The notes beneath the pieces are model-generated. The model saw only the letters and a program-made list of their open reading frames with translations. It had not been told where the DNA came from and did no database searches. The position numbers and the translations under genes are program-made. A stretch of 64,000 bases of DNA, taken from NCBI RefSeq assembly GCF_056712565.1, contig NZ_CM160072.1. One strand, written 5' to 3'. Below are positions 713-55,269 of the stretch, piece by piece. Numbering within the stretch: the stretch's first letter is position 1; every line of letters begins with the position of its first letter.

Positions 713-1504
713 TCAGAAGCGCGGCATACTTAAGCCACCGTCAATGGCGACCGCCTGACCACAGGTGTAAATAAGTTTACCTTCCGCCATCGCGCGGACA
801 GTGGAAGCAATATCCGCCGGATAACCCCAACGTCCCCACGGCACCAGACCTTTGGCAATCAGTTCGTCGTAATAGGCCGTTGCCGGAATAGTCATATCGG
901 TTTTGATGAGACCAGGACGCACTTCATATACGCCAATTTGTTCATTACAAAGGCGAGCAGCAAACAGACGAGCAGCGGCAGAGACGGCAGTTTTGGCAAT
1001 GGTATATTCGCCGCGATTCATCGCCAGCATGATGGCGTTGATGGAACTGACGAAAATAATCGAGCGGTGCGGCAGTTCTGCTTCCGGTTTCGGCTGTGCC
1101 AGTAAGCGCTTACTGAATGCCTGAGCAAGGAAGAACGGTGCGCGGGTGTTAATGGCAATATTTTGGTCGAAGCTGTCTGGTTCGAGGTCGAGAAGGTCAC
1201 CGCGTTTTTTCACTGAAATGCCTGCGTTGTTGAGCAGGCAGTCCAGACGTCCCCACTGGTTTTGCGCTGCGTCGAGCATCTCTTCATGCAGGGAGAGATC
1301 GCCCACATCAGCAGGGAAGCAAATCACTTCCACGCCTTCCGCCAGACATTCTTGTTGTGTGGCATGTAATTTTTCTACGCTATCGGCATCCGGACGATCA
1401 TTAATCAGCAGATTAAATCCGCCACGCGCAAGCTCCAGCGCACAGCCCTTTCCAATACCACGAGCGGCTCCGGTAATCACGGCAACAGGACGAGTGGATT
1501 TCAT
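713..1504 (-). CDS. short-chain dehydrogenase/reductase (SDR) family oxidoreductase
   Basis: ORF 713-1639 trimmed to Met at 1504 (MKSTRPVAVITGAARGIGKG); TGxxxGIG Rossmann motif and YxxxK catalytic motif (YTIAK). Confidence 0.75.
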   Translation of the reverse strand: MKSTRPVAVITGAARGIGKGCALELARGGFNLLINDRPDADSVEKLHATQQECLAEGVEVICFPADVGDLSLHEEMLDAAQNQWGRLDCLLNNAGISVKKRGDLLDLEPDSFDQNIAINTRAPFFLAQAFSKRLLAQPKPEAELPHRSIIFVSSINAIMLAMNRGEYTIAKTAVSAAARLFAARLCNEQIGVYEVRPGLIKTDMTIPATAYYDELIAKGLVPWGRWGYPADIASTVRAMAEGKLIYTCGQAVAIDGGLSMPRF

Positions 1505-1571
1505 ACAATAGCTCTCTTTTTTGAATTTTGTTTCCTTAGTGATGATTAGCTTGCGACTGGAGGATAAAAAG

Positions 1572-1593
1572 ATCAACCATCTAGTTGGTTGAT
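1572..1593. promoter_or_regulatory. 8-bp inverted repeat ATCAACCA-N6-TGGTTGAT in divergent SDR/TetR intergenic region; candidate TetR operator
   Basis: Perfect inverted repeat read directly in the 211-bp divergent promoter region. Confidence 0.4.
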
Positions 1594-1715
1594 ATGCGAT
1601 GGCGATCACAGGACATTTGATAACCTGATGAAAGTACAAGTTTTTGCCCTTTTTTCTGAAGCTGAAATCAAATCAGGTTATGATAGTCACCACGAAGAGG
1701 TCGTGGGGAAGCGTT

Positions 1716-2363
1716 ATGTATCTTGATACCAGCAACGTACAGAGCCTGAAAGAAAAGCTGCTGTTATGCGCGGTTAATGAATTTGCCGAATATGGTTACG
1801 AAGGGGCCAGAGTCGATAATATCGTCAAGGCCGCGGGGTGCAGTAAACAGACGGTTTATCACCACTTTGGTAATAAAGAAAATTTATTTATCGAAGTACT
1901 GGAATATACCTGGAACGATATTCGACAAAAAGAAAAGGCCCTTGATTTCTCAGATCTTCCGCCACAGAAAGCCATTGAGAAAATAATCGATTTTACATGG
2001 GATTATTATATTTCTAATCCCTGGTTTTTAAAAATTGTGCATAGTGAAAATCAAAGTAAGGGTGTGCATTATGCAAAATCACAGCGTCTTTTAGAAATTA
2101 ACCATGCGCACTTGCAGTTAATGGAATCCTTATTGGATGAAGGGAAGAAACAAAATATTTTTAAGCCAGATATCGACCCATTGCAGGTGAATATTAATAT
2201 TGCTGCGCTTGGGGGATATTATTTGATCAACCAGCATACGCTTGGCCTGGTTTATCACATCAGTATGGTTTCACCGCAGGCACTGGAAGCCAGACGTAAG
2301 GTCATCAAAGAGACGATCCTTAGCTGGCTTTTGGTTGACCCTTCATCTACCGCGCGCGAATAA
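1716..2363 (+). CDS. TetR/AcrR family transcriptional regulator
   Basis: ORF 1644-2363 trimmed to Met at 1716 preceded by GGGGAA; N-terminal HTH region ([32 protein letters not shown]) typical of TetR. Confidence 0.75.
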
Positions 2364-2985: not shown

Positions 2986-3202
2986 GGTTTCCTCCTGCTC
3001 CGCGTCTTGTTCCTCAATCATAGCCTATGAATAAGCTAACGCTATGATGTCCGTGGTAAACCCGCCTTTATTATATTCATACGGGATATTGCTATTGTTT
3101 CTTTTTCCCCGGGATTTGTCATCATTCCCGCGACAAAGTTTTACCCAAAGAAGTGTGGCTGATATGCTGCCCGCTACTTTATACCCTAAGAAAGGAAATA
3201 CG

Positions 3203-11022: not shown

Positions 11023-11763
11023 ATGTTAGATCAAGTATGCCAGCTTGCACGGAATGCAGGCGATGCCATTATGCAGGTCTACGACGGGACGAAACCGATG
11101 GACGTCGTCAGCAAAGCGGACAATTCTCCGGTAACGGCAGCGGATATTGCCGCTCACACCGTTATCATGGACGGTTTACGTACGCTGACACCGGATATTC
11201 CGGTCCTTTCTGAAGAAGATCCTCCCGGTTGGGAAGTCCGTCAGCACTGGCAGCGTTACTGGCTGGTAGACCCGCTGGATGGTACTAAAGAGTTTATTAA
11301 ACGTAATGGCGAATTCACCGTTAACATTGCGCTCATCGACCACGGCAAACCGATTTTAGGTGTGGTGTATGCGCCGGTAATGAACGTAATGTACAGCGCG
11401 GCAGAAGGCAAAGCCTGGAAAGAAGAGTGCGGTGTGCGCAAGCAGATTCAGGTCCGCGATGCGCGCCCGCCGCTGGTGGTGATCAGCCGTTCCCATGCAG
11501 ATGCGGAGCTGAAAGAGTATCTGCAACAGCTTGGCGAACATCAGACCACGTCCATCGGCTCTTCGCTGAAATTCTGCCTGGTGGCGGAAGGACAGGCGCA
11601 GCTGTACCCGCGTTTCGGGCCAACGAATATTTGGGATACCGCCGCTGGTCATGCTGTGGCTGCAGCTGCCGGAGCGCACGTTCACGACTGGCAGGGTAAA
11701 CCGCTGGATTACACTCCGCGCGAGTCGTTCCTGAATCCGGGGTTCAGAGTGTCTATTTATTAA
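11023..11763 (+). CDS. cysQ: 3'(2'),5'-bisphosphate nucleotidase
   Basis: 246-aa ORF; inositol monophosphatase-family motifs (WLVDPLDGT). Confidence 0.9.
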
Positions 11764-12310
11764 TTAATTTATGCAGCAGGTCCATCACTTGCTGCACCTC
11801 TTCCTGAGTAAGCGCCCCGTCTTTGGCCCATTGCACGCGACCGTCTTTATCCAGCACCACTACAGCGGAACTTTTTTCATCCAGCTGCCAGGCACCGCGT
11901 GCGACGCCATTGCTATCAACAATAAACTGCGACCAGGGATAAAGCTTTTTATTACTCTCCAGACTGCTGCGCACAAACATCCCTGAACCCGGAATCGCGT
12001 CGTCGGTGTTAACAATGGTGGTGGTCTGGTAACGATCGTGCGGTAACTTCGCTGATTTAATCGCTTCAATCAGCGTCGCGTTTTTCTCTTTTGCAGAGGT
12101 GCGACCAGCAATATGTTGCAGTACTCGCACTTTTCCCACTAACTGCGCGCTGTTCCAGGTTTTGTAGCTAAACTGATCTTTATCAAGCACCAACTCGCCA
12201 CGATCGGTGATGCCAATCGGCGGCACTCGCTGACCGGTTTCGAACTGATGTGCGGAAGCCATCATCGGCAACAGCAGGCAGGTGAGTGCCAGAATCTTGC
12301 GTAGGGTCAT
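11753..12310 (-). CDS. ytfJ: periplasmic protein YtfJ
   Basis: 185-aa ORF with N-terminal signal peptide; 3' end overlaps cysQ 3' end by 11 bp. Confidence 0.85.
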
Positions 12311-15386: not shown

Positions 15387-20938
<5,552 letters not shown>

Positions 20939-20940
20939 CA

Positions 20941-21282
20941 ATGCGAATATTTGTCTACGGCAGTTTACGCCACAAACAAGGCAACAGTCACTGGATGACC
21001 AATGCCCAGTTACTGGGCGATTTCAGTATCGATAACTACCAGTTGTATAGCCTGGGCCACTATCCAGGCGCAGTTCCGGGGAACGGAACAGTACACGGTG
21101 AAGTTTATCGTATTGATAACGCCACGCTGGCCGAACTTGATGCCTTGCGCACCAGGGGCGGTGAATACGCGCGCCAGTTGATTCAGACGCCGTACGGGAG
21201 TGCATGGATGTACGTTTATCAACGACCCGTCGATGGATTAAAGCTAATTGAAAGCGGCGACTGGTTAGACAGGGATAAGTAA
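20941..21282 (+). CDS. ytfP: gamma-glutamylcyclotransferase-like protein (AIG2 family)
   Basis: 113-aa ORF starting MRIFVYGSLR. Confidence 0.85.
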   Translation: MRIFVYGSLRHKQGNSHWMTNAQLLGDFSIDNYQLYSLGHYPGAVPGNGTVHGEVYRIDNATLAELDALRTRGGEYARQLIQTPYGSAWMYVYQRPVDGLKLIESGDWLDRDK

Positions 21283-21294
21283 TAATAAAAGCAC

Positions 21295-21319
21295 GCCACC
21301 TTCGGGTGGCGTTGTTTTA
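21295..21319 (+). terminator. intrinsic terminator after ytfP
   Basis: CGCCACC-ttcg-GGTGGCG hairpin followed by TTGTTTT. Confidence 0.7.
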
Positions 21320-21660
21320 TGCGATGTATCTCGCGATTTTTTTTGTAACTTTCCCATCTTTTGCTTTTCTCTCCGGGCCGCTTTCCATATCTGCAATCGC
21401 ATAAAAAACTCTGCTGGCGTTAACAAATGTACAGGGGTAAAACGGGGACACGCTTTGAACGGTGAGTATGAGTGAGGCCGGCTAACTTCCAGCAAGTGGC
21501 TATGAACAGCAAAATGGTGGTCGAGTTTAGCTTGTTCTTACCGTTCAAGCCTTTCAACTGCTGAAAATAATAATAGTGGAGTAGAGAGTTTATAAATTGC
21601 GGGCATAAAAAACCCTTACTAACCGAAGCCCGGTGTTCAGGGTTATTGCGCCAGAAGAAC

Positions 21661-22191
21661 TTATTTATTCTTGGCGCGCTCGAAGGAAGCAACGATTTCA
21701 GCTTTAGCGGCTTCTGCGTTTTCCCAACCTTCAACTTTAACCCACTTGCCTTTTTCGAGGTCTTTGTAGTGCTCGAAGAAGTGAGCGATTTGCGCTTTCA
21801 GCAGCTCTGGCAGATCGTTAACGTCTTTAATGTGATCGTATTCTTTGCTCAGCTTGGTGTGCGGAACAGCAATCAGTTTCGCATCTTCACCGGCTTCGTC
21901 GGTCATTTTCAGTACGCCAACCGGACGGCAGCGGATCACAGAACCCGGCTGCAGCGGGTACGGAGTCGGGACCAGTACGTCAACCGGGTCACCGTCCAGA
22001 GACAGAGTGTGGTTGATGTAACCGTAGTTGCACGGATAGAACATCGCGGTGGACATGAAGCGGTCAACGAACAGTGCGCCGCTCTCTTTGTCGATTTCGT
22101 ATTTGATCGGATCTGCGTTAGCCGGGATCTCAATAACAACGTAGATGTCTTCCGGCAGATCTTTACCCGCAGGGACGTTGAGTAAGCTCAT
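21661..22191 (-). CDS. ppa: inorganic pyrophosphatase
   Basis: 176-aa ORF; family I PPase sequence. Confidence 0.95.
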
Positions 22192-22500: not shown

Positions 22501-23457
22501 ATGTGGAAACGCTTACTTGTAGTCTCTGCAGTCTCGGCAGCCATGTCGTCTATGGCGTTGGCCGCTCCATTAACAGTAGGATTTTCGCAGGTCGGATCGG
22601 AATCCGGCTGGCGCGCCGCAGAAACCAATGTGGCGAAAAGTGAAGCCGAAAAACGCGGTATCACACTGAAAATTGCCGATGGTCAGCAAAAGCAGGAAAA
22701 CCAGATTAAAGCGGTACGTTCCTTCGTCGCACAAGGGGTGGATGCGATCTTTATCGCTCCGGTGGTGGCGACGGGTTGGGAACCGGTATTAAAAGAGGCG
22801 AAAGATGCCGAAATCCCGGTCTTCTTGCTTGACCGTTCCATCGATGTGAAAGACAAATCTCTCTATATGACCACCGTTACTGCCGACAACATCCTCGAAG
22901 GCAAGTTGATTGGTGACTGGCTGGTAAAAGAGGTCAATGGCAAACCGTGTAACGTGGTTGAGTTGCAGGGCACCGTTGGGGCCAGCGTCGCCATTGACCG
23001 TAAGAAAGCCTTTGCCGAAGCCATTAAGAATGCGCCAAATATCAAAATTATCCGCTCGCAGTCAGGTGACTTCACCCGCAGCAAAGGCAAAGAAGTGATG
23101 GAGAGCTTTATCAAAGCGGAAAACAACGGCAAAAACATCTGCATGGTTTACGCCCATAACGATGACATGGTGATTGGTGCAATTCAGGCAATTAAAGAAG
23201 CGGGCCTGAAACCGGGCAAAGATATCCTGACAGGCTCTATCGACGGCGTGCCGGACATCTACAAAGCGATGATTGATGGCGAAGCGAACGCCAGCGTTGA
23301 ACTGACGCCGAACATGGCAGGTCCTGCTTTCGATGCGCTGGAGAAATACAAAAAAGACGGCACCATGCCTGAAAAGCTGACGTTAACCAAATCCACCCTT
23401 TATCTGCCTGATACCGCAAAAGAAGAGTTAGAGAAGAAGAAAAATATGGGGTATTGA
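22501..23457 (+). CDS. ytfQ: periplasmic sugar-binding protein of ABC transporter (galactofuranose-type)
   Basis: 318-aa ORF with signal peptide; periplasmic binding protein fold. Confidence 0.9.
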   Translation: MWKRLLVVSAVSAAMSSMALAAPLTVGFSQVGSESGWRAAETNVAKSEAEKRGITLKIADGQQKQENQIKAVRSFVAQGVDAIFIAPVVATGWEPVLKEAKDAEIPVFLLDRSIDVKDKSLYMTTVTADNILEGKLIGDWLVKEVNGKPCNVVELQGTVGASVAIDRKKAFAEAIKNAPNIKIIRSQSGDFTRSKGKEVMESFIKAENNGKNICMVYAHNDDMVIGAIQAIKEAGLKPGKDILTGSIDGVPDIYKAMIDGEANASVELTPNMAGPAFDALEKYKKDGTMPEKLTLTKSTLYLPDTAKEELEKKKNMGY

Positions 23458-45100: not shown

Positions 45101-45189
45101 ACATCCTCCCGGCAAATTGTCCGGCATTATACTCAGCTCTGAGAGAGGATCAAGAAGATGATGCAGTTATAAAGCAAGGCAAACGGTTA

Positions 45190-45678
45190 TCATGAATATA
45201 TATTCAATTTTAATAAGTAATTAATTTGCTTGTGCACCAGGGCTGTACGCTTTACCACACGTGGTGCGACCCAAACGATATTGCTGCCAGCAATCACGCC
45301 AAGAATTTCTGGCAAAGCATGGAAATCAAGGATTCGTGCTACTGCCCGACCATATCCGGCGACGGTATGGATAAGGATAAATTCACCATTATGCTCGACA
45401 CTCAGGACCATTTCAGCGACGGATCGACCTGCGTCAGGTGTGGGAAGTAATTGAGGATTCACCGAATAAATTTTTTGTCCTTTTGTATTTCTAATTTTTA
45501 TGACTCCCAGCAATTTCAGTAGTCGTGAAACGGTTGACTGACTGATACTGTCAAAGCCATGGTTTTGCAAATCGCGGCGGATTTCCTCCTGTGAAAGATA
45601 ACTTTTTTCGGTAATCAGGCGCTGACAGACCGCCAGTTGCTTCTTTTCTTTGGCGGAGTAATCATCGTATTCCTTCAT
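45190..45678 (-). CDS. ArgR-family transcriptional regulator (ADI cluster-associated)
   Basis: ORF 45190-45744 trimmed to Met at 45678 preceded by AAAGGTG; ArgR-like DNA-binding region (SQSTVSRLLK...IRNTKGQ) and C-terminal oligomerisation region. Confidence 0.75.
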   Translation of the reverse strand: MKEYDDYSAKEKKQLAVCQRLITEKSYLSQEEIRRDLQNHGFDSISQSTVSRLLKLLGVIKIRNTKGQKIYSVNPQLLPTPDAGRSVAEMVLSVEHNGEFILIHTVAGYGRAVARILDFHALPEILGVIAGSNIVWVAPRVVKRTALVHKQINYLLKLNIYS

Positions 45679-45793
45679 AATGCACCTTTTATTTATTATT
45701 ACCTGATGATATTTTTCACATTTTATAATGTGAGAGTGGTTCATTTATCACTACACCAGATTTGAAGGCCGCTTTGATAAGCGGCCTGTCGCG

Positions 45794-47197
45794 TTAAATC
45801 ATCGCGGCGATACTCAGCACAATCATATTCAACATCGTGAGAATCAGCAGTAGCGGTGCTACCCATCTCAGATAACGGACCCAGGGTACACGGGCAATCG
45901 CCAGACCGCCCATCACTACCGCAGAGGTTGGCGTAATCAAATTAACCACCCCGGAAGCAGACTGATAAGCGGTCACCACCAGATCGCGTTGTACATGAGC
46001 AAAATCAGCGAGTGGAGCCATTATTGGCATCGTTAACACTGCAAGGCCGGAAGATGAGGGAACCAGAAAAGAGAGCAATACTTCCAGCCAATAGGTCACG
46101 TTGATGAAAACAGTGGTGGAAAGCCCTGAAACCAGATTCTCAGCACTGTGCAGAATTGTGTGCGTAATCATGCCGTTATCCATCACGACCACAATACCGC
46201 GGGCGATGCCGATAATCAGTGCCACACCAAGGAGATCCCGCGCGCCGTCAATAAAGGTACTGGTGAAGGTTTCTTCGCCCATGCGGGCAATGACACCCAC
46301 GATGACCGCAGCTGCCAGAAAGACAGCAGAGATTTCCGCCATCCACCAACCCAGTACCGCTACGCCGTAAATCATAAAGGCAAAGGATGCAGCAAAAAGT
46401 ATCAGGATCGCTTTGCGCGTGGGGGTAAATTCCAGCATCGTTTCTGAACGATTTCCCAGAAAATGCGCCTGGTTTTCAGCCATCTTATCCGCCACGATAG
46501 AGCTTTCCGGACTGTTGCGAACTTTGCGGGCATAACGCATAACCCAGTAAACACAAATCACGTAGCCTACTAACAGCAAAATAACACGCAGCAAAATGCC
46601 CTGAGTAAAGGGGATCCCTGCGGCGTTGGCAGCAATGACGGTAGCAAATGGGTTAATGGTTGAGCCCAGCGTGCCAATGCCCGATCCCAATAACACTGTG
46701 GCGGCAGCGACCAGAGGATCAAAGCGGGCAGCCATCATGACGGGCACCAGCAACGTGTAGAAGGGGAGTGATTCTTCCGCCATCCCATAAATAGTACCGC
46801 CAGCAGCGAAGAGCGCCATCAGGATCGGAATCATCCACTCTTCCCGACCATTAAGGCGAGTTGTCACTCGTTCGATACCGGCATCTATTGCTCCGGTTTT
46901 ATTTACTACTCCCAAAAATCCACCGATGATCAGGACAAACAGCGCGACATCAATCGCTCCCGCAGTGTAGGTTTGATGGTTGTACAAGCCGTCGATGGGC
47001 GCTAACAGGACAGCCGTAATACCCTGTGGTTGCGCCTCAACAGGTGCGTAAGTGCCTGCAACAGGAACTTCCTTTCCCAGTGCGGCATTTGTCACCATCT
47101 GATATTTTCCCGCAGGTACAATCCAGGTCATTGCCGCAACTAACGCAATCAGCACGAACAAGATGGTATAAGCGGTGGGAAATTTGAATTTACCCAT
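45794..47197 (-). CDS. membrane carrier, probably YfcC/DcuC-type anaerobic carrier family; putative arginine/ornithine exchanger of the ADI cluster
   Basis: ORF 45794-47242 trimmed to Met at 47197 preceded by GGAGA; highly hydrophobic multi-TM protein; family assignment from sequence recall only. Confidence 0.7.
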   Translation of the reverse strand: MGKFKFPTAYTILFVLIALVAAMTWIVPAGKYQMVTNAALGKEVPVAGTYAPVEAQPQGITAVLLAPIDGLYNHQTYTAGAIDVALFVLIIGGFLGVVNKTGAIDAGIERVTTRLNGREEWMIPILMALFAAGGTIYGMAEESLPFYTLLVPVMMAARFDPLVAAATVLLGSGIGTLGSTINPFATVIAANAAGIPFTQGILLRVILLLVGYVICVYWVMRYARKVRNSPESSIVADKMAENQAHFLGNRSETMLEFTPTRKAILILFAASFAFMIYGVAVLGWWMAEISAVFLAAAVIVGVIARMGEETFTSTFIDGARDLLGVALIIGIARGIVVVMDNGMITHTILHSAENLVSGLSTTVFINVTYWLEVLLSFLVPSSSGLAVLTMPIMAPLADFAHVQRDLVVTAYQSASGVVNLITPTSAVVMGGLAIARVPWVRYLRWVAPLLLILTMLNMIVLSIAAMI

Positions 47198-47253
47198 AAT
47201 GTGATCTCCATAATCACGGGCATACGCCACTCGTCGACGCATGCCCGTCAGGG

Positions 47254-48258
47254 TTAGTCGCCGAGAGTTGCTACCATCACCGCTTTAATGGTGTGCATCC
47301 GGTTTTCTGCTTCATCGAAAACAATGGAGTGGGCAGATTCAAAAACCTCATCAGTTACTTCCAGTCCTTTGAGGCCGTAGGCCATCTCGATCTCGCGTCC
47401 TACTGTGGTGTGCTCATTATGGAAGGCGGGCAGGCAGTGCATAAATTTGACTTCAGGGTTACGCGTGGCAGTAATCACCTGTTGATTGATCTGATAAGGT
47501 GTCATAAGACTCACTCGTTCTGCCCAGGCTTCTTTTGGCTCTCCCATCGAAACCCAAACATCCGTATAGAGAAAATCAACGTCGTATACGCCTTCTTCCA
47601 CATCCTCTGTCAGGGTGATTCTCGCCCCAGTCACGCTGGCGATCTCACGGCATTGTGTTACCAGCGCTTCATCTGGCCAGAAAGATTTTGGTGCCACCAG
47701 ACGGATATCCATCCCCATTTTTGCAGCACCAACCATCAGCGAGTTCCCCATGTTATTTCGGGCATCACCAAGATACGCAAAGCTCAGCTCTGGCAGCGTT
47801 TTGCCTGGCGCATGTTCCAGCATGGTCATTAAATCCGCGAGGATCTGTGTCGGGTGAAATTCATTGGTCAGTCCGTTCCATACCGGAACACCAGCGAACT
47901 CACCTAATTCTTCAACGATATTCTGACCATAACCGCGATACTCAATACCGTCATACATGCGTCCGAGTACGCGAGCGGTATCTTTCATTGATTCTTTATG
48001 GCCGATTTGTGAGCCGCTGGGGCCGATGTAAGTCACCTGCGCACCTTGATCAAAGGCCGCGACTTCAAAGGCACAGCGGGTACGGGTAGAGGATTTTTCA
48101 AAAATCAACGCAATGTTTTTACCGACCAGCGTTTGTTTTTCGTTTCCAGATTTCTTGGCGGCTTTAAGATTGATAGCCAAATCAATCAGGTATTGAATCT
48201 CTGCTGGGGTGTAATCAAGCAGCTTAAGAAAATTACGGTTTTTCAGTGAAGTAGCCAT
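47254..48258 (-). CDS. ornithine carbamoyltransferase (ADI-cluster copy, ArgI-like)
   Basis: ORF 47254-48285 trimmed to Met at 48258 preceded by AAGGA; STRTR and HCLP motifs; high similarity to argI product at 51620-52624. Confidence 0.85.
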
Positions 48259-48268
48259 GGGGATGTCC

Positions 48269-49213
48269 TTATAAAAATGGATCAAGCGTGGTTATGGGGG
48301 TATCAAGGCGAATAAGAGTGCCTTTGTCTCCGGCGAGAATTTCCGGACCATCTGCAAGAGAGCCGATCCCTGCAATGCCCCGGCACTGACTAACAAACTT
48401 TGCGCAGGCGGTGACTTTCGGCCCCATAGACCCGGCATCAAACTGCATTTCGTTGAGTAATTCCGGCGTGACCTGGGCCAGCGGGCGTTGGGTTGGCTTG
48501 CCCCAGTCGAGATATACTGCGTCCGCATCAGTGAGGATCAACAAGGCGTCAGCATGGATCTGACTTGCCAGTAGCGCGGCTGAAAGATCTTTGTCGATAA
48601 CCGCTTCAATCCCATGGTATCCATCGGCTTTTTCAACCACCGGAACACCACCGCCACCATTACAGATCACCAGATGATCGTGGGCGATCAGTGTCTGGAT
48701 GGCATCCCGCTCGACGATGCGTTTAGGTTGTGGAGAAGGTACGACCCGGCGGAAAGAGTGACCATCTGCTTTGAAAACCCAGCCTTTTTCTGCCTGTAGT
48801 ACCTGAGTCTGAGCGTGGTCATAAATTGGGCCGATGTACTTAGTTGGGTTACTGAAGGCGGGATCGTTGGCATCCACTTCAACCTGCGTCAGCAGAACGC
48901 TGATTTCACGTTGTGGTAGTTGATTTTTCAGCGCCTGTTGTAGCATGTAGCCGATCATCCCCTGGCTTTCGGCCCCCAGAATGTCGAGTGGATAGGGAGC
49001 GACATGGGCATAGGCGCTATTTTGAAGTGCCAGAAGTCCAACTTGTGGACCATTCCCGTGAACCAGTACAACCCGCCAGTGTTGAGTCAGTTGGGCGATA
49101 GTTTTAGCCGCAAGATCGATATTTTTACGTTGGATTTCTGCTTCGAGTGGTTCGCCTCGTTTAAGCAGGGCATTACCGCCGAGAGCGATAACCAGTGTTG
49201 GTTTGTTTTCCAT
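48269..49213 (-). CDS. carbamate kinase
   Basis: ORF 48269-49237 trimmed to Met at 49213 preceded by AAGGAAG; carbamate kinase-like sequence ([10 protein letters not shown]...). Confidence 0.85.
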
Positions 49214-49223
49214 GATCTCTTCC

Positions 49224-50447
49224 TTAGATACCGTCACGATGCAAAGGGCAACTCATGCAACGTGCGCCGCCACGTCCGCGGCCTAATTCATCACCGGGGA
49301 TGGGTAAAACGGTGATGCCTGCTTTGTCATATTTTTCGTTAGTCCAGATGTTGCGCTCGTAGCCCACTACCACTCCCGGCCGAAGCGTGAGCACATTGTT
49401 AGCGTCATTCCACTGTTCGCGTTCTGCCTCAAAGGCATCACCCCCCGTGGTGATTAAACGTACCTGGTCAATACCGAGGGCTTTTTCGATAGCATGGAGG
49501 AGTGTGCTTTCTTGAGTACGTTTCAGGCCGCCGTGACCGTCAGGTGTTAGCGTCCAGCAATTAACATCCGGGCGCACAACTTCGGGATAAACCGAGAAGG
49601 TGTCGATATCGATATGAGTCATAACGGTGTCAAGATGCATACAGGAGCGGTGTTTAGGCAGCTCAACAGCGATTACCCGTTCAGCCTGACGATGTTTAAA
49701 CAATGCCTGAGCAAGAAACTCGATTCCTTGTGGCGTGGTGCGTTCAGACATGCCGATCAACACGGCCCCCCGACCAATCACCAGCACATCACCACCTTCT
49801 AACGTGGCGTGGTCATAATTAATATTCTCGTCGCCGAAATATTTAATAAATTCGCCGCCAGCAAATTGTGGATGCCAGCGATAAATAGCGCGTAGATTAT
49901 TGGTTTCACGTTGGCGAGCAGGTTTTGCCATTGGATTAATCGATACACCGTTATAAATCCAGCATGAGGTATCACGCGTAAATAAATGATTCGGTAACGG
50001 CTTCATAATGAAATCATTAATATCGTGGGTATCAACCACCATATTTTTAATTGAGGCGGGAATTTCACTATAAGTCAGCCCACCACTTAAATGACGAGCA
50101 AGGTCCCGGTGTGACATCTCTGCAAGCCAGGTGCGAACGTCAGTAGCAAACGTAGGGCCGAGTCGGTAATCTGATATTTGTGTTTCCAGTAACCAGCTTT
50201 TGGCTTCCGGGATATCCAATGTTTGTGTTAGTAAATCAGTGAGTAACAGAACTTCTATCCCTTGCTGGCGCAGCGTATTGGCGAAAATATCATGCTCTTC
50301 ACCTGCCCGCTCAACGGACAATACATCGTCAAATAACAACTCCTGGCAATTGGATGGTGTTAGACGTTTCAGACTGAGATTTGGGCGATGCAACATAACG
50401 CTGCGTAGTTGTCCAATTTCAGAACCAACATAATGCTTTTCCATCAT
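49224..50447 (-). CDS. arginine deiminase
   Basis: 407-aa ORF; amidinotransferase-family sequence with C-terminal catalytic Cys region (RCMSCPL). Confidence 0.85.
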
Positions 50448-50567
50448 TATTCCTTTAACACTTTTTCAAAAATAAAGAGGAGATGGCTGCAAACAAATTA
50501 AATGCTTGTAGTCAGGTCTGTTCAGTAATTTTCAGATGCAATGATTCAGTTTATTTCTTCCAGAAAA

Positions 50568-50583
50568 TGTGACGACTTTCACA
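50568..50583. promoter_or_regulatory. perfect CRP consensus site TGTGA-N6-TCACA upstream of the ADI operon
   Basis: TGTGACGACTTTCACA read directly, about 120-135 bp upstream of the arginine deiminase start. Confidence 0.5.
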
Positions 50584-51094
50584 CCAGTGATGATATTAAT
50601 AATCGCAGTTAATAATATTTGATGCGGTTCTGATAAATGATAAAGAAACAAAATACGATAATGCATTAATACGCAAATATACGCAGAGTTATTCTTCGTT
50701 GTTAATTGATTGTTTTATTTTTCAGGAAATGCCTTTAAGTATAAAGCATTGATATTTATGTATATTTTAATATTCATTGCATATCTATGCGAAAGAATAA
50801 GGTGATTATTTTTCACAGCACTATTTTCACGGGATAACTATGACAGCACGGGCATTAAAAGCTAAGAAAATGAACTGTGATCTGACTGAGAGTTTTCTTT
50901 TAACATATGCAATAACAAGATATTAGGACCAAAATACATAGCTAAGTTATAAGATTTATGCAGCAAAACTGCATACAAAATTACTCCTGCTTAACATCAG
51001 TACAACATCTCCAGCAATAAACATGCGCAAGGGCAAAACCTGATGATTTTTCTATGGTGAGAGGTGGCTTTTTTTCGTATAAGGAAAGAAGTGA

Positions 51095-51574
<480 letters not shown>

Positions 51575-51583
51575 GTGATCACT

Positions 51584-51613
51584 GCCGGGGGGCGACCTGT
51601 GCCGCCGCCCGGC
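51584..51613. terminator. GC-rich hairpin between convergent tabA and argI
   Basis: GCCGGGGGGCG ... CGCCGCCCGGC stem with one mismatch. Confidence 0.45.
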
Positions 51614-51619
51614 AAAACG

Positions 51620-52624
51620 TTATTTTGCTAATGTAGCGACCATAACAGCTTTTATGGTGTGCATCCGGTTTTCTGCCTGGTCAAAGACAATACTTGCCGG
51701 AGATTCAAAGACTTCATCGGTGACTTCCATTCCACCATACAGACCGAATTCTGCGGCCATTTTTTTACCCAGCGTGGTTTGCTCATCATGAAATGCAGGC
51801 AGACAGTGGAGGAACTTAACCTGCGAATTACCGGTCAGGGCCATCATTTTGCTATTCACCTGATAGTCACGCAGCAGGGCAATACGCTCCGCCCATTTCT
51901 CTTTGGGCTCACCCATCGATACCCAGACATCGGTATAGATAAAGTCTGCACCTTTAACCCCAGAGGCGATATCTTCCGTCAAGGTGATTTTACCCCCGTG
52001 TTTTTGTGCCAGAGCACTGCATTCGGCGACCAGCGCAGCTTCCGGCCAGCATGCCTGTGGCGCGACCAGACGCAAATCCAGACCGGTAAGCGCCGCAGCT
52101 TCGAGCATCGAATTGCCCATGTTGTTACGCGCGTCACCTGCATAGACCAGCGTCATTTCGTTGAATGCTTTGCCGGGCAAATGCTCCTGCATGGTGAGGA
52201 GATCCGCCAGCAGCTGCGTGGGGTGGAACTCATTGGTCAGGCCGTTCCATACTGGCACGCCAGCGTATTCCGCCAGTGTTTCGACAATCTCCTGACCATA
52301 GCCGCGATACTGAATACCGTCATACATGCGACCAAGCACGCGGGCAGTGTCTTTAATCGACTCTTTGTGACCAATCTGGCTGCCGCTTGGGCCGAGATAA
52401 GTAACGCGAGCACCCTGGTCATATGCGGCAACTTCGAAAGAGCATCGGGTACGGGTCGAGTCTTTTTCGAAGATGAGCGCGATGTTTTTGCCAGTGAGTC
52501 TGGCTTCTTCTTTACCGCTTTTCTTATCGGCTTTCAGCTTCGCGGCTAACTGCAACAAGCTGTTGAGTTCAGCTGGCGTGAAATCGAGTAATTTCAGGAA
52601 ATGCTTATGATAAAACCCGGACAT
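51620..52624 (-). CDS. argI: ornithine carbamoyltransferase (anabolic)
   Basis: ORF 51620-52828 trimmed to Met at 52624 ([13 protein letters not shown]); 334 aa; ARG boxes upstream. Confidence 0.9.
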
Positions 52625-53378: not shown

Positions 53379-53900
53379 TCAAAGTTTGCGTAGCATCCGT
53401 ACTTCACAATCGACATGACCCGTGCAGCCAAGCGCATAGTCGATATGCTCAAAGCCCAAATGCTCATAAAGCGCAATGGCTTCCTTTAAAAAAGCGGTCG
53501 TTTCCAGATAGCAGCGTTTGAAACCCATTTCTCGCGCCTGCTCCATTGCCATTAAGGCCAGTTTTTTTGCCAGCCCTTTGCCGCGGATAGCCGGAAGAAA
53601 ATACATCTTTTGCAGTTCGCAAATGTCTGACTCACTCCCGGTTAATGGCGCAATCCCACCGCCGCCGACCACTTCACCCTCGTACTCAACCACCCAATAT
53701 GCGTGGCCAGGCTGACTATATACTTGATACAGCTCGTCAAGGTTCGGATCGGCGACGGTGTAGCCTTTATCAGCGGTAAGACCGTATTCGGCGGATACCT
53801 GACGAATGACGTGGGCGATAGCAGGATTATCGGCGACGGTAAGTTTGCGCAAACGGAGTGCGGGAGAAGCGACAACATTCATAGCATAGCTCAATTTCAA
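53379..53900 (-). CDS. yjgM: GNAT-family N-acetyltransferase
   Basis: 173-aa ORF (start could be Met at 53882); acetyl-CoA binding motif (RGKGLAKKL). Confidence 0.8.
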
Positions 53901-54074
53901 ATGTATGATTTATAGCTCACTTTAATACCACCCTCGCTTAGGTGGTGCAAGAAGAAGATAAATCAGAAAATATTACGCATATCTCTCTGAGATAAAGCGT
54001 ATTCTAGGCGAACCAGTATCAATTGACTGGAATTATTATCGGTATGAATGGAATTTATTTTAGGGATATAGTTC

Positions 54075-55262
54075 ATGAATGATGTAAACATCGGGAAAGA
54101 TAATTCTCGGCACTCGTTTGTTTTCACAGGCAAAGGTGGTGAGTATTTTCTTATTTGTCTTGTGAATTTTTCACTGACAATTATTACTCTGGGAATATAT
54201 GGACCGTGGGCATTGATAAAATGCCGTCGTTATATTTATCAACATGTGACACTCAAGGGGCAACCATTTAGTTATAAGGGAACAGGTGGTGCCATTTTTG
54301 TTAGCATGTTACTTATTGTGGTGGTTTATCTTCTCAGTATTTCTTGTTTTGCAGGTCAACACTTTGCGCTCGGTTTATTCCTGTTTGCTCTCTTGATCTG
54401 CGGTATTCCTTGTATGGCAGTGAAGAGTCTGCAGTATCAGGCGAACATGACCTCACTGAATGACATTCGCTTTGGCTTTAACTGCTCAATGATGCGTGCA
54501 TGGTGGGTTATGCTAGGACTGCCTGTTCTGTTGGCGTTAGTTTTTTGGTTCGCACTGTATCTTATTGCACAAGTGACGACATCGATAGGAGGGTTATTCT
54601 TTAACTTAGTCGCATTAAGTTTGCTTTCTGCCATCGGGCTAGGTGTTGTCCATGGTATAACCTATAGTAAATGGATGCCATTGCTGGGTAATAATGCAAC
54701 TTTTGGCATTCATAAGTTTTCTATTCAGGTAAACGTAAAAGAATGCATTAAAGGTTGCATGCTCGCAATATTAACCATGGTTCCTTTCATCATTGTGATT
54801 GGTATTATGATCGCACCAGTATTCCAGCAGTTAATGATGATGACCATGTTGGGTAGGTCTGATGCTGGCAGTGAGTTTGTATTACAATATTACCCGCAGA
54901 TTATGGCTTCTTATTTCCTGTATTTTGTCGCGATCCTTGTTTTTGCCAGTTATCTCTATGTCACGTTACGCAATCTGTTTTTGAATAATCTGACGCTGGC
55001 AAATGGGACAATTCGTTTTCATTCATCTGTTACCGCGATCGGTATGCTTCTGCGCATGTTGGCGGTATTAATGGGGTCCTCAATTACCTGTGGTCTGGCT
55101 TATCCCTGGCTGAAAATGTGGATGGTTAGCTGGATTGCTAACAATACCCATGTCCAGGGCGACCTTGATTCGCTGGAGTTAACCAATGATGACAAACCGC
55201 AGGATAGCGGTTCGTTAATGTGGATATCTCGCGGTATTATGCCGTATGTTCCGTTTATCTAA
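54075..55262 (+). CDS. yjgN: inner membrane protein YjgN (DUF898)
   Basis: 395-aa hydrophobic ORF. Confidence 0.85.
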   Translation: MNDVNIGKDNSRHSFVFTGKGGEYFLICLVNFSLTIITLGIYGPWALIKCRRYIYQHVTLKGQPFSYKGTGGAIFVSMLLIVVVYLLSISCFAGQHFALGLFLFALLICGIPCMAVKSLQYQANMTSLNDIRFGFNCSMMRAWWVMLGLPVLLALVFWFALYLIAQVTTSIGGLFFNLVALSLLSAIGLGVVHGITYSKWMPLLGNNATFGIHKFSIQVNVKECIKGCMLAILTMVPFIIVIGIMIAPVFQQLMMMTMLGRSDAGSEFVLQYYPQIMASYFLYFVAILVFASYLYVTLRNLFLNNLTLANGTIRFHSSVTAIGMLLRMLAVLMGSSITCGLAYPWLKMWMVSWIANNTHVQGDLDSLELTNDDKPQDSGSLMWISRGIMPYVPFI

Positions 55263-55269
55263 ATAAAAA

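Follow-up and report, generated by a model that had tools for sequence, protein, structure and literature searches.

A short ytfP-ppa interval of Escherichia coli that very probably holds an inert remnant of the chpS-chpB toxin-antitoxin cassette

Introduction

What is left between ytfP and ppa in those Escherichia coli genomes that lack the chpS-chpB (chpBI-chpBK) toxin-antitoxin (TA) pair, which occupies this place in K-12: a site that never received the module or the trace of a module that has been lost? The question is raised by a 64-kb stretch of DNA (64,000 nucleotides of contig NZ_CM160072.1, assembly GCF_056712565.1, hereafter "the window", to which all positions refer unless another locus is named), where only 378 bp separate the two genes. 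A sequence-only reading of the window had correctly placed the pair between ytfP and ppa in K-12, found none here and proposed a defined empty site that marks the lineage as lacking the module.

Absence of intact chpSB and variation in its presence are already known and were published in 2013. According to the part of that paper which deals with the locus (Pastorello et al. 2013 mBio, PMC3735183), it exists in three states, with chpBS, with neither insertion or with esiB, found in 53%, 32% and 15% of 47 genomes, respectively; judged by this description the window represents the "neither" state. In K-12 the spacers flanking chpSB are 211 nt upstream and 79 nt downstream (PMC5120126). A review table of 2009 lists one MazF homologue for UTI89 versus two for MG1655 (PMC2654758), and in a genome-wide association study chpB/chpS appeared as an accessory gene pair associated with healthcare-associated bacteraemia (PMC6096937).

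Results

Borders and content of the interval

Measured from stop to stop, the interval spans positions 21283-21660 (ytfP ends at 21282 and ppa, on the minus strand, at 21661), exactly as had been read from the letters. RefSeq annotates both genes in the same way in the 100%-identical genome of HS13-1 and calls none between them. Over 22 kb the window is 100% identical to UTI89, APEC O1, IHE3034 and NU14, all of them ST95-complex strains of phylogroup B2. Features of the locus are collected in Table 1 together with genes of an arginine deiminase cluster found further downstream.

Table 1. Positions of genes, terminators and cassette-derived segments in the window
Feature	Positions	Strand	Remarks
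tamB	17159-20938	+	E. coli region
ytfP (gamma-glutamylcyclotransferase family)	20941-21282	+	left border; ORF; annotated ytfP in HS13-1
ytfP intrinsic terminator	21293-21312, tail to ~21319	+	hairpin ACGCCACC-TTCG-GGTGGCGT and T-rich tail; terminator scan
Kept upstream part of ytfP-chpS spacer	21320-21444	+	cassette-derived; ends ...CAGGGGTAAAACG
Left deletion junction	21445-21456	+	placed to ~+/-10 nt; blurred by later decay
Probable chpB relic (pseudogene)	~21445-21585	+	degenerate chpB nt ~9-145 (codons ~4-48) joined to last codons and stop
Right deletion junction GTGG/AGTAG	21576-21584	+	chpB GGTGG nt 141-145 joined to GGTGGAATAA nt 342-351
chpB-ppa spacer with putative ppa terminator	21586-21660	-	~92% identical to K-12 (blastn)
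ppa (inorganic diphosphatase)	21661-22191	-	right border; ORF; annotated ppa in HS13-1
ytfQ	22501-23457	+	E. coli region
ArgR-like regulator	45190-45744	-	
YfcC-like antiporter	45794-47242	-	
Ornithine carbamoyltransferase	47254-48285	-	
Carbamate kinase	48269-49237	-	
Arginine deiminase	49224-50447	-	

The ytfP terminator, previously placed at 21295-21319, was recovered as a hairpin with an 8-bp, G+C-rich stem, the fold of which has an energy of -24.5 kcal/mol (z = -5.1 versus shuffles). This hairpin is kept across genera of Enterobacteriaceae and is present as a single copy in the 378-bp gap, and the variable cargo of the locus starts immediately 3' of it. On the side of ppa the minus strand has a stem AACCCU...AGGGUU followed by UUUUU (hairpin ~21612-21644, U run 21607-21611), which by its form may serve as the ppa terminator; the overall z is only -0.9. 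Two minus-strand open reading frames (ORFs), 21265-21495 and 21420-21734, reach into the ends of ytfP and ppa; neither gave a match in a Pfam search. To this extent the earlier statement that the ORFs of the interval resemble no protein of the MazF/ChpB type holds true, but it does not extend to the plus strand.

Several other differences from K-12 were registered elsewhere in the window. The arginine deiminase cluster (45136-51632) stands in place of yjgH-bdcA-bdcR...yjgL. The ytfI gene, which in K-12 occupies ~1.2 kb between ytfJ and cysQ, is absent at 11763-11768, where 4 unaligned bases correspond to 1225 in K-12. Positions 1-1960 are not alignable to K-12. An SDR (3-ketoacyl-ACP reductase-like) ORF (713-1639, minus strand) adjoins a full-length TetR-family ORF (1644-2363, plus strand); in K-12 this position is taken by a truncated TetR pseudogene together with yjfZ. 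The yjgN region (53832-55264) is too divergent from K-12 for megablast, leaving ~1.43 kb unaligned on both sides, and identity reaches only 93-95% in the adjacent argF-rraB block; the sequence is locally divergent here.

Similarity to chpB

Comparison of the K-12 ytfP-ppa intergenic region with the window by blastn revealed three colinear blocks. The outer ones correspond to the terminator with the upstream part of the ytfP-chpS spacer (21293-21444, 84% identical to K-12) and to the side of the ppa terminator (21588-21660, 92%). The middle block (21488-21560, plus strand) is the best-kept core of chpB, in which 61/76 positions (80%) are identical to the K-12 gene with an E-value of 2e-13. The same place was found by tblastn, when ChpB of K-12 was compared with the entire 64 kb: 18/30 residues (60%) are identical at 21489-21578 (plus strand, E 6e-6), and PASGYEQQNGGRV*LVLTVQAF of the window is aligned with PASGHEQQGAGRPALVLSVQAF of ChpB, the asterisk being an in-frame TAG at 21528-21530. 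A 3-nt deletion is present near 21554. With ChpS as a query no tblastn match was obtained in the interval, and the best one in the 64-kb window (E 0.09) falls inside tamB. Both the nucleotide and the protein comparisons bear out the earlier claim that the intact pair, and with it a functional module, is absent here, but they also bring to light chpB-like coding sequence and colinear blocks of the cassette in what had been considered an empty site; chpS/chpB-like coding sequence was the very finding that the sequence-only reading had named as its refutation.

Alignment mode mattered for this locus: global MAFFT alignment of the window with K-12 set the relic against chpS, and the true homology was fixed by local alignment, while a global alignment with cheap gaps became fragmented and was dropped. 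In pairwise and three-way alignments the relic is colinear with intact chpB from 5 Escherichia species. All together ~270 of the 378 bp are derived from the chpSB cassette. The spacer motif TTTTCTCTCCG..CCGCTT is also found in a decayed locus of Citrobacter sedlakii (0/500 shuffles reach the score) and not in the short empty sites of other genera described below.

In control searches ChpB of K-12 matched PF02452 (90 bits) and ChpS matched PF04014. The translated relic has no Pfam match, the fragment being too short and too damaged for PF02452: ~45 degenerate codons are left of the toxin ORF, with the TAG inside. No upstream antitoxin ORF of the PF04014 type was found, chpS being wholly deleted in the alignment, and the promoter/operator region is missing as well, its palindrome and Shine-Dalgarno (SD) sequence lying within the left deletion. 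Nor is this the esiB allele, as only 378 bp and one hairpin copy are present. The interval shares with the K-12 chpS-chpB locus its site and orientation, the upstream spacer, the downstream ppa-terminator region and ~140 nt homologous to the 5' third of chpB. It differs by the lack of the antitoxin gene, palindrome, SD, start codon of chpB and the C-terminal two thirds of the toxin, as well as by the in-frame stop; small indels and A/T drift have further altered the surviving ~140 nt. Colinear and syntenic similarity of high significance between cassette-derived flanks, two large deletions, the in-frame stop, haplotype-specific indels of 1-9 nt and divergence close to the synonymous level of the neighbouring genes all speak for a chpB pseudogene. 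Based on these sequence data one can assume, with little doubt, that the interval holds an inert remnant of a former chpS-chpB cassette, a type II TA module of the MazEF/PemIK family.

Two deletions and their possible origin

Two deletions cut an intergenic region of ~890 bp, ~750 bp of which are cassette-derived, to 378 bp. The left one removed ~305 nt relative to K-12. It begins after ...CAGGGGTAAAACG and took the promoter-proximal spacer with the palindrome and SD, all of chpS and the start codon of chpB. The palindrome GTTATAC-TTT-GTATAAC, which may be an operator, is present together with the SD in most of 5 intact Escherichia alleles and is imperfect in one. The right deletion is 201 nt long and in frame, so that ChpB codons ~48-114 are gone; in the less decayed O6:H16-type relic its junction reads cleanly GATGGTGG/AATAG. 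GGTAAA occurs as a direct repeat in the spacer and at chpB nt 3-8 in 5/5 intact Escherichia alleles, i.e. at both ends of the left deletion, and GGTGG is found at nt 141 in 4/5 and at nt 342 in 5/5 of them. It is conceivable that each deletion arose via slippage or illegitimate recombination between these short direct repeats (GGTAAA for the left, GGTGG for the right). Either order of events would spare the cell an active toxin without its antitoxin, because the left deletion takes promoter, antitoxin and toxin start together, while the right one alone inactivates the toxin.

States of the locus across E. coli

Among 5426 complete E. coli genomes, a clinically biased collection whose counts are not population frequencies, the relic segment (21445-21587) was detected in 2296 (42%), intact chpSB in 3100 (57%) and esiB in 188 (3.5%), and ~30 genomes are in some other state. 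Both esiB genomes examined (L083 and L085, 2/2) also carry the relic, downstream of esiB; if all esiB genomes do, the relic without esiB accounts for ~39% of the 5426. Since the relic is present downstream of esiB, the esiB allele is derived from the relic allele, that is, the insertion followed the decay. The esiB gene itself (~1.47 kb) is inserted after the ytfP terminator with duplication of the hairpin, which looks like a recombination or insertion point for esiB.

The relic alone is found in the ST95-like window, esiB with the relic in ATCC 25922 and intact chpSB in ST131, all three of which belong to phylogroup B2. This phylogroup has all three main states, and the state of the locus does not serve as a phylogroup marker. 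Occurrence of the relic in 42% of complete E. coli genomes and in E. albertii is also at variance with the suggestion that the missing pair marks the lineage.

In strain MINF_1D (L083) the ~1.63-kb esiB cassette lies between two copies of the ytfP hairpin (1345-1371 and 3001-3026, corresponding to window 21295-21320), one with the loop TTCG and the other with TGCG, and the chpB relic is 3' of the cassette. The "short direct repeats with partial inverted symmetry" around esiB, mentioned in the passage of PMC3735183 on this locus, correspond to these two copies of the terminator hairpin. A fourth state, additional to the three in that passage, was registered in strain N50 (L084 1-4180), where an operon of licT, a GH1 glycosidase and beta-glucoside PTS IIABC abuts ppa and no relic is present. 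In the same strain a ~129-nt repeat-like element separates the terminator of ppa from the stop codon of this gene.

Exchange between the alleles is visible in strain HH45 (L090 1198-1709). Both junctions of this allele are of the relic type, yet 101 nt of its chpB fragment match K-12 at 100% identity, a patch that looks like gene conversion from an intact allele; this mosaic shows that intact and relic alleles recombine. The HH45 fragment is annotated by NCBI PGAP as a partial PemK/MazF pseudogene. A very G+C-rich, homopolymer-laden insert of ~135 nt at the left junction of this strain may be an assembly artefact. In ST131 (L091 5790-6675, O25b:H4-ST131) the chpSB cassette has 7/886 differences from K-12 with zero synonymous ones in chpS and chpB, which suggests that the chpSB allele was exchanged by recombination within phylogroup B2. 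In the flanking genes of ST131 K-12-like stretches alternate with ST95-like ones, and with these mosaic flanks and the 7/886 differences the case for a clean recombinational import of chpSB into ST131 is suggestive but not clear-cut. Alleles may have been shuffled among lineages by homologous recombination via the conserved flanks.

Age of the relic

Both junctions are present in 9/9 aligned copies of the relic, including those of the E. albertii type strain and of a cryptic-clade strain labelled E. coli. Such identity of the junctions throughout points to a single origin of the relic allele, which is old and is not the marker of one lineage. Compared with the window, its chpB segment is 93-99% identical in other E. 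coli relic types, 89% in the cryptic-clade strain and 82% in E. albertii. The divergence from E. albertii (0.18) is approximately the same as synonymous p-distances between the window and this species in flanking genes (0.19 for ytfP, 0.20 for ppa and 0.385 for tamB), and therefore the relic diverges at a roughly neutral, species-level rate. Small indels that arose independently distinguish the nine copies, in agreement with neutral decay. For intact chpS and chpB the synonymous divergence between Escherichia species is 0.17-0.28, like that of flanking genes, so that intact and relic alleles both look old. The 95-99% identity of sampled intact alleles over the same chpB segment had raised the suspicion that the intact cassette recently spread horizontally between Escherichia species; this was rejected, since their synonymous divergence over the whole genes matches the flanks.

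Alternative explanations

If the lineage never had chpSB, the 378 bp would be ordinary intergenic DNA, and the lack of intact genes, the minus-strand ORFs without a family match and the identical genome with none annotated by RefSeq could all be quoted in favour of such a pristine site. Sites of this kind, however, look different. The scan of species-representative genomes for YtfP gave 80 loci (E. fergusonii is not among them), and in numerous genomes of Citrobacter, Enterobacter, Klebsiella, Kluyvera, Raoultella and Salmonella diarizonae no more than ~100-170 nt separate ytfP from ppa. These short gaps are made up of two adjoining terminators, the conserved hairpin of ytfP and that of ppa, and have no significant similarity to the relic. 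Since empty sites are short and the gap of the window is mostly cassette DNA, the interval is not a never-occupied site. Together with the significant colinear similarity to chpB on the plus strand this makes a pristine site extremely improbable, and its designation as a defined empty site has to be abandoned. A further-decayed relic, which was suspected by eye in the 170-nt site of C. amalonaticus, was rejected, as 173/500 shuffles score as well.

A former cassette may, in principle, have been acquired more than once. Between the relic and each of the sampled intact Escherichia alleles the difference is ~29-34% over 134 nt and 20% in the core, and the reconstructed ancestor of the relic is ~71% identical to intact Escherichia alleles and at most 59% to those of other genera. 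Being so far from the intact alleles, the relic must stand on a long stem branch, which may reflect either prolonged A/T-biased decay or a more divergent source allele. In the latter case the relic could descend from an older divergent chpSB and the intact allele could have been re-introduced later by homologous replacement. This would explain why the ancestor is that distant from intact alleles so similar to each other, and why identity between the window and K-12 drops from ~97-99% in ytfP and ppa to 84% in the spacer 21293-21444; donors exist, as chpSB occupies the same site in several genera, and recombination of alleles is documented by HH45. However, the relic is still nearest to the Escherichia allele, flanking-level synonymous divergence of intact chpS and chpB gives no sign of a recent sweep, and A/T-biased neutral decay alone can lengthen the stem. 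We therefore consider two acquisitions unlikely. Still less probable, in our estimation, is that intact and decayed alleles form a trans-species polymorphism which predates the split of E. coli and E. albertii and is held by balancing or fluctuating selection; if so, the benefit of ChpB against, for instance, some phages or plasmids would be set against the cost of carrying the toxin, and neutral persistence with recombination would not account for the whole pattern.

The remaining question is whether the fragment has been kept for a new purpose: it might encode a small RNA or a small protein, or regulate or insulate ppa or ytfP. Persistence of the allele across species, its presence in 42% of genomes and ~87-93% identity of the whole interval across species could be understood in this way. 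But the Rfam scan, even at a permissive E-value, gave no meaningful match (the best, E 0.3, is a sub-threshold S15-leader inside ppa, taken as chance), and promoter-like matches are at the chance level (2 found versus 2.0 expected). A 1-nt indel disrupts the sole plus-strand ORF of the relic (21472-21564, 30 aa) in other haplotypes. The haplotypes vary by indels of 1-9 nt, and divergence of the chpB segment is close to the synonymous rate of its surroundings, with the terminators being better conserved. Such exaptation is thus very improbable, and the interval is most readily viewed as a decayed cassette. With no toxin, antitoxin or operator left, the locus would have no TA activity, and its DNA would only separate the convergent terminators of ytfP and ppa.

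Discussion

Intact chpSB was found at the same offset, ~213 nt 3' of ytfP, in 4 other Escherichia species and in 6 species of other genera. Beyond Escherichia it is present in Lelliottia, Enterobacter asburiae, Pseudocitrobacter, Kluyvera genomosp. 1 and an Enterobacteriaceae strain, amino acid identity in all of these being 63-78%. In Citrobacter sedlakii NBRC 105722 (L025 3340-3686) residues ~63-107 of chpB, from the 3' part of the gene, follow directly on the upstream spacer of the cassette. This locus resembles the window by its site, by the same upstream spacer and by a dead chpB fragment, but its junctions are other and the 3' part of the gene is kept, whereas the window keeps the 5' part. 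Since the junctions differ from those of the Escherichia relic, this was a separate decay event, and chpSB has thus decayed at least twice between ytfP and ppa.

It is not surprising that the module was lost. As an RNase of the MazF type, which cuts at ACD sites, ChpB is weak and less processive (PMC12151602), and no fitness benefit was attributable to chpB of K-12 (review PMC2654758). For the locus itself, the passage of PMC3735183 devoted to it describes no chpB remnant in the "neither" or esiB state, whereas here it was found in both.

Chromosomal TA modules decay at other places of the genome as well. Mine et al., in Genetics in 2009, reportedly described such decay of the chromosomal ccdO157 system within E. 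coli. The ccdO157 system is likewise a chromosomal type II TA module with a constant position between genes, which some strains keep intact, while in others it is degraded or missing. It belongs to the CcdAB family, while the module considered here is MazEF-like, and it is reported to have accumulated many recent independent lesions, whereas decayed chpSB is one old two-deletion haplotype spread across species. By analogy, the parallel fits the notion that chromosomal TA modules are dispensable and decaying. The loss of chpSB described here is ordinary decay of a TA module, which leaves the current understanding of TA biology unchanged, and its practical value is small.

In surveys of chpSB presence and absence the decayed allele should, nevertheless, be separated from the never-occupied site. 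The hairpin of the ytfP terminator marks a site of recurrent cargo, which may be chpSB, esiB or the PTS operon. The "empty" allele of ST95-type extraintestinal pathogenic E. coli is a relic, and therefore the view that K-12 gained chpSB by insertion into that sequence is wrong for Escherichia. On a small scale the locus illustrates the way in which a TA module disappears from a chromosome.
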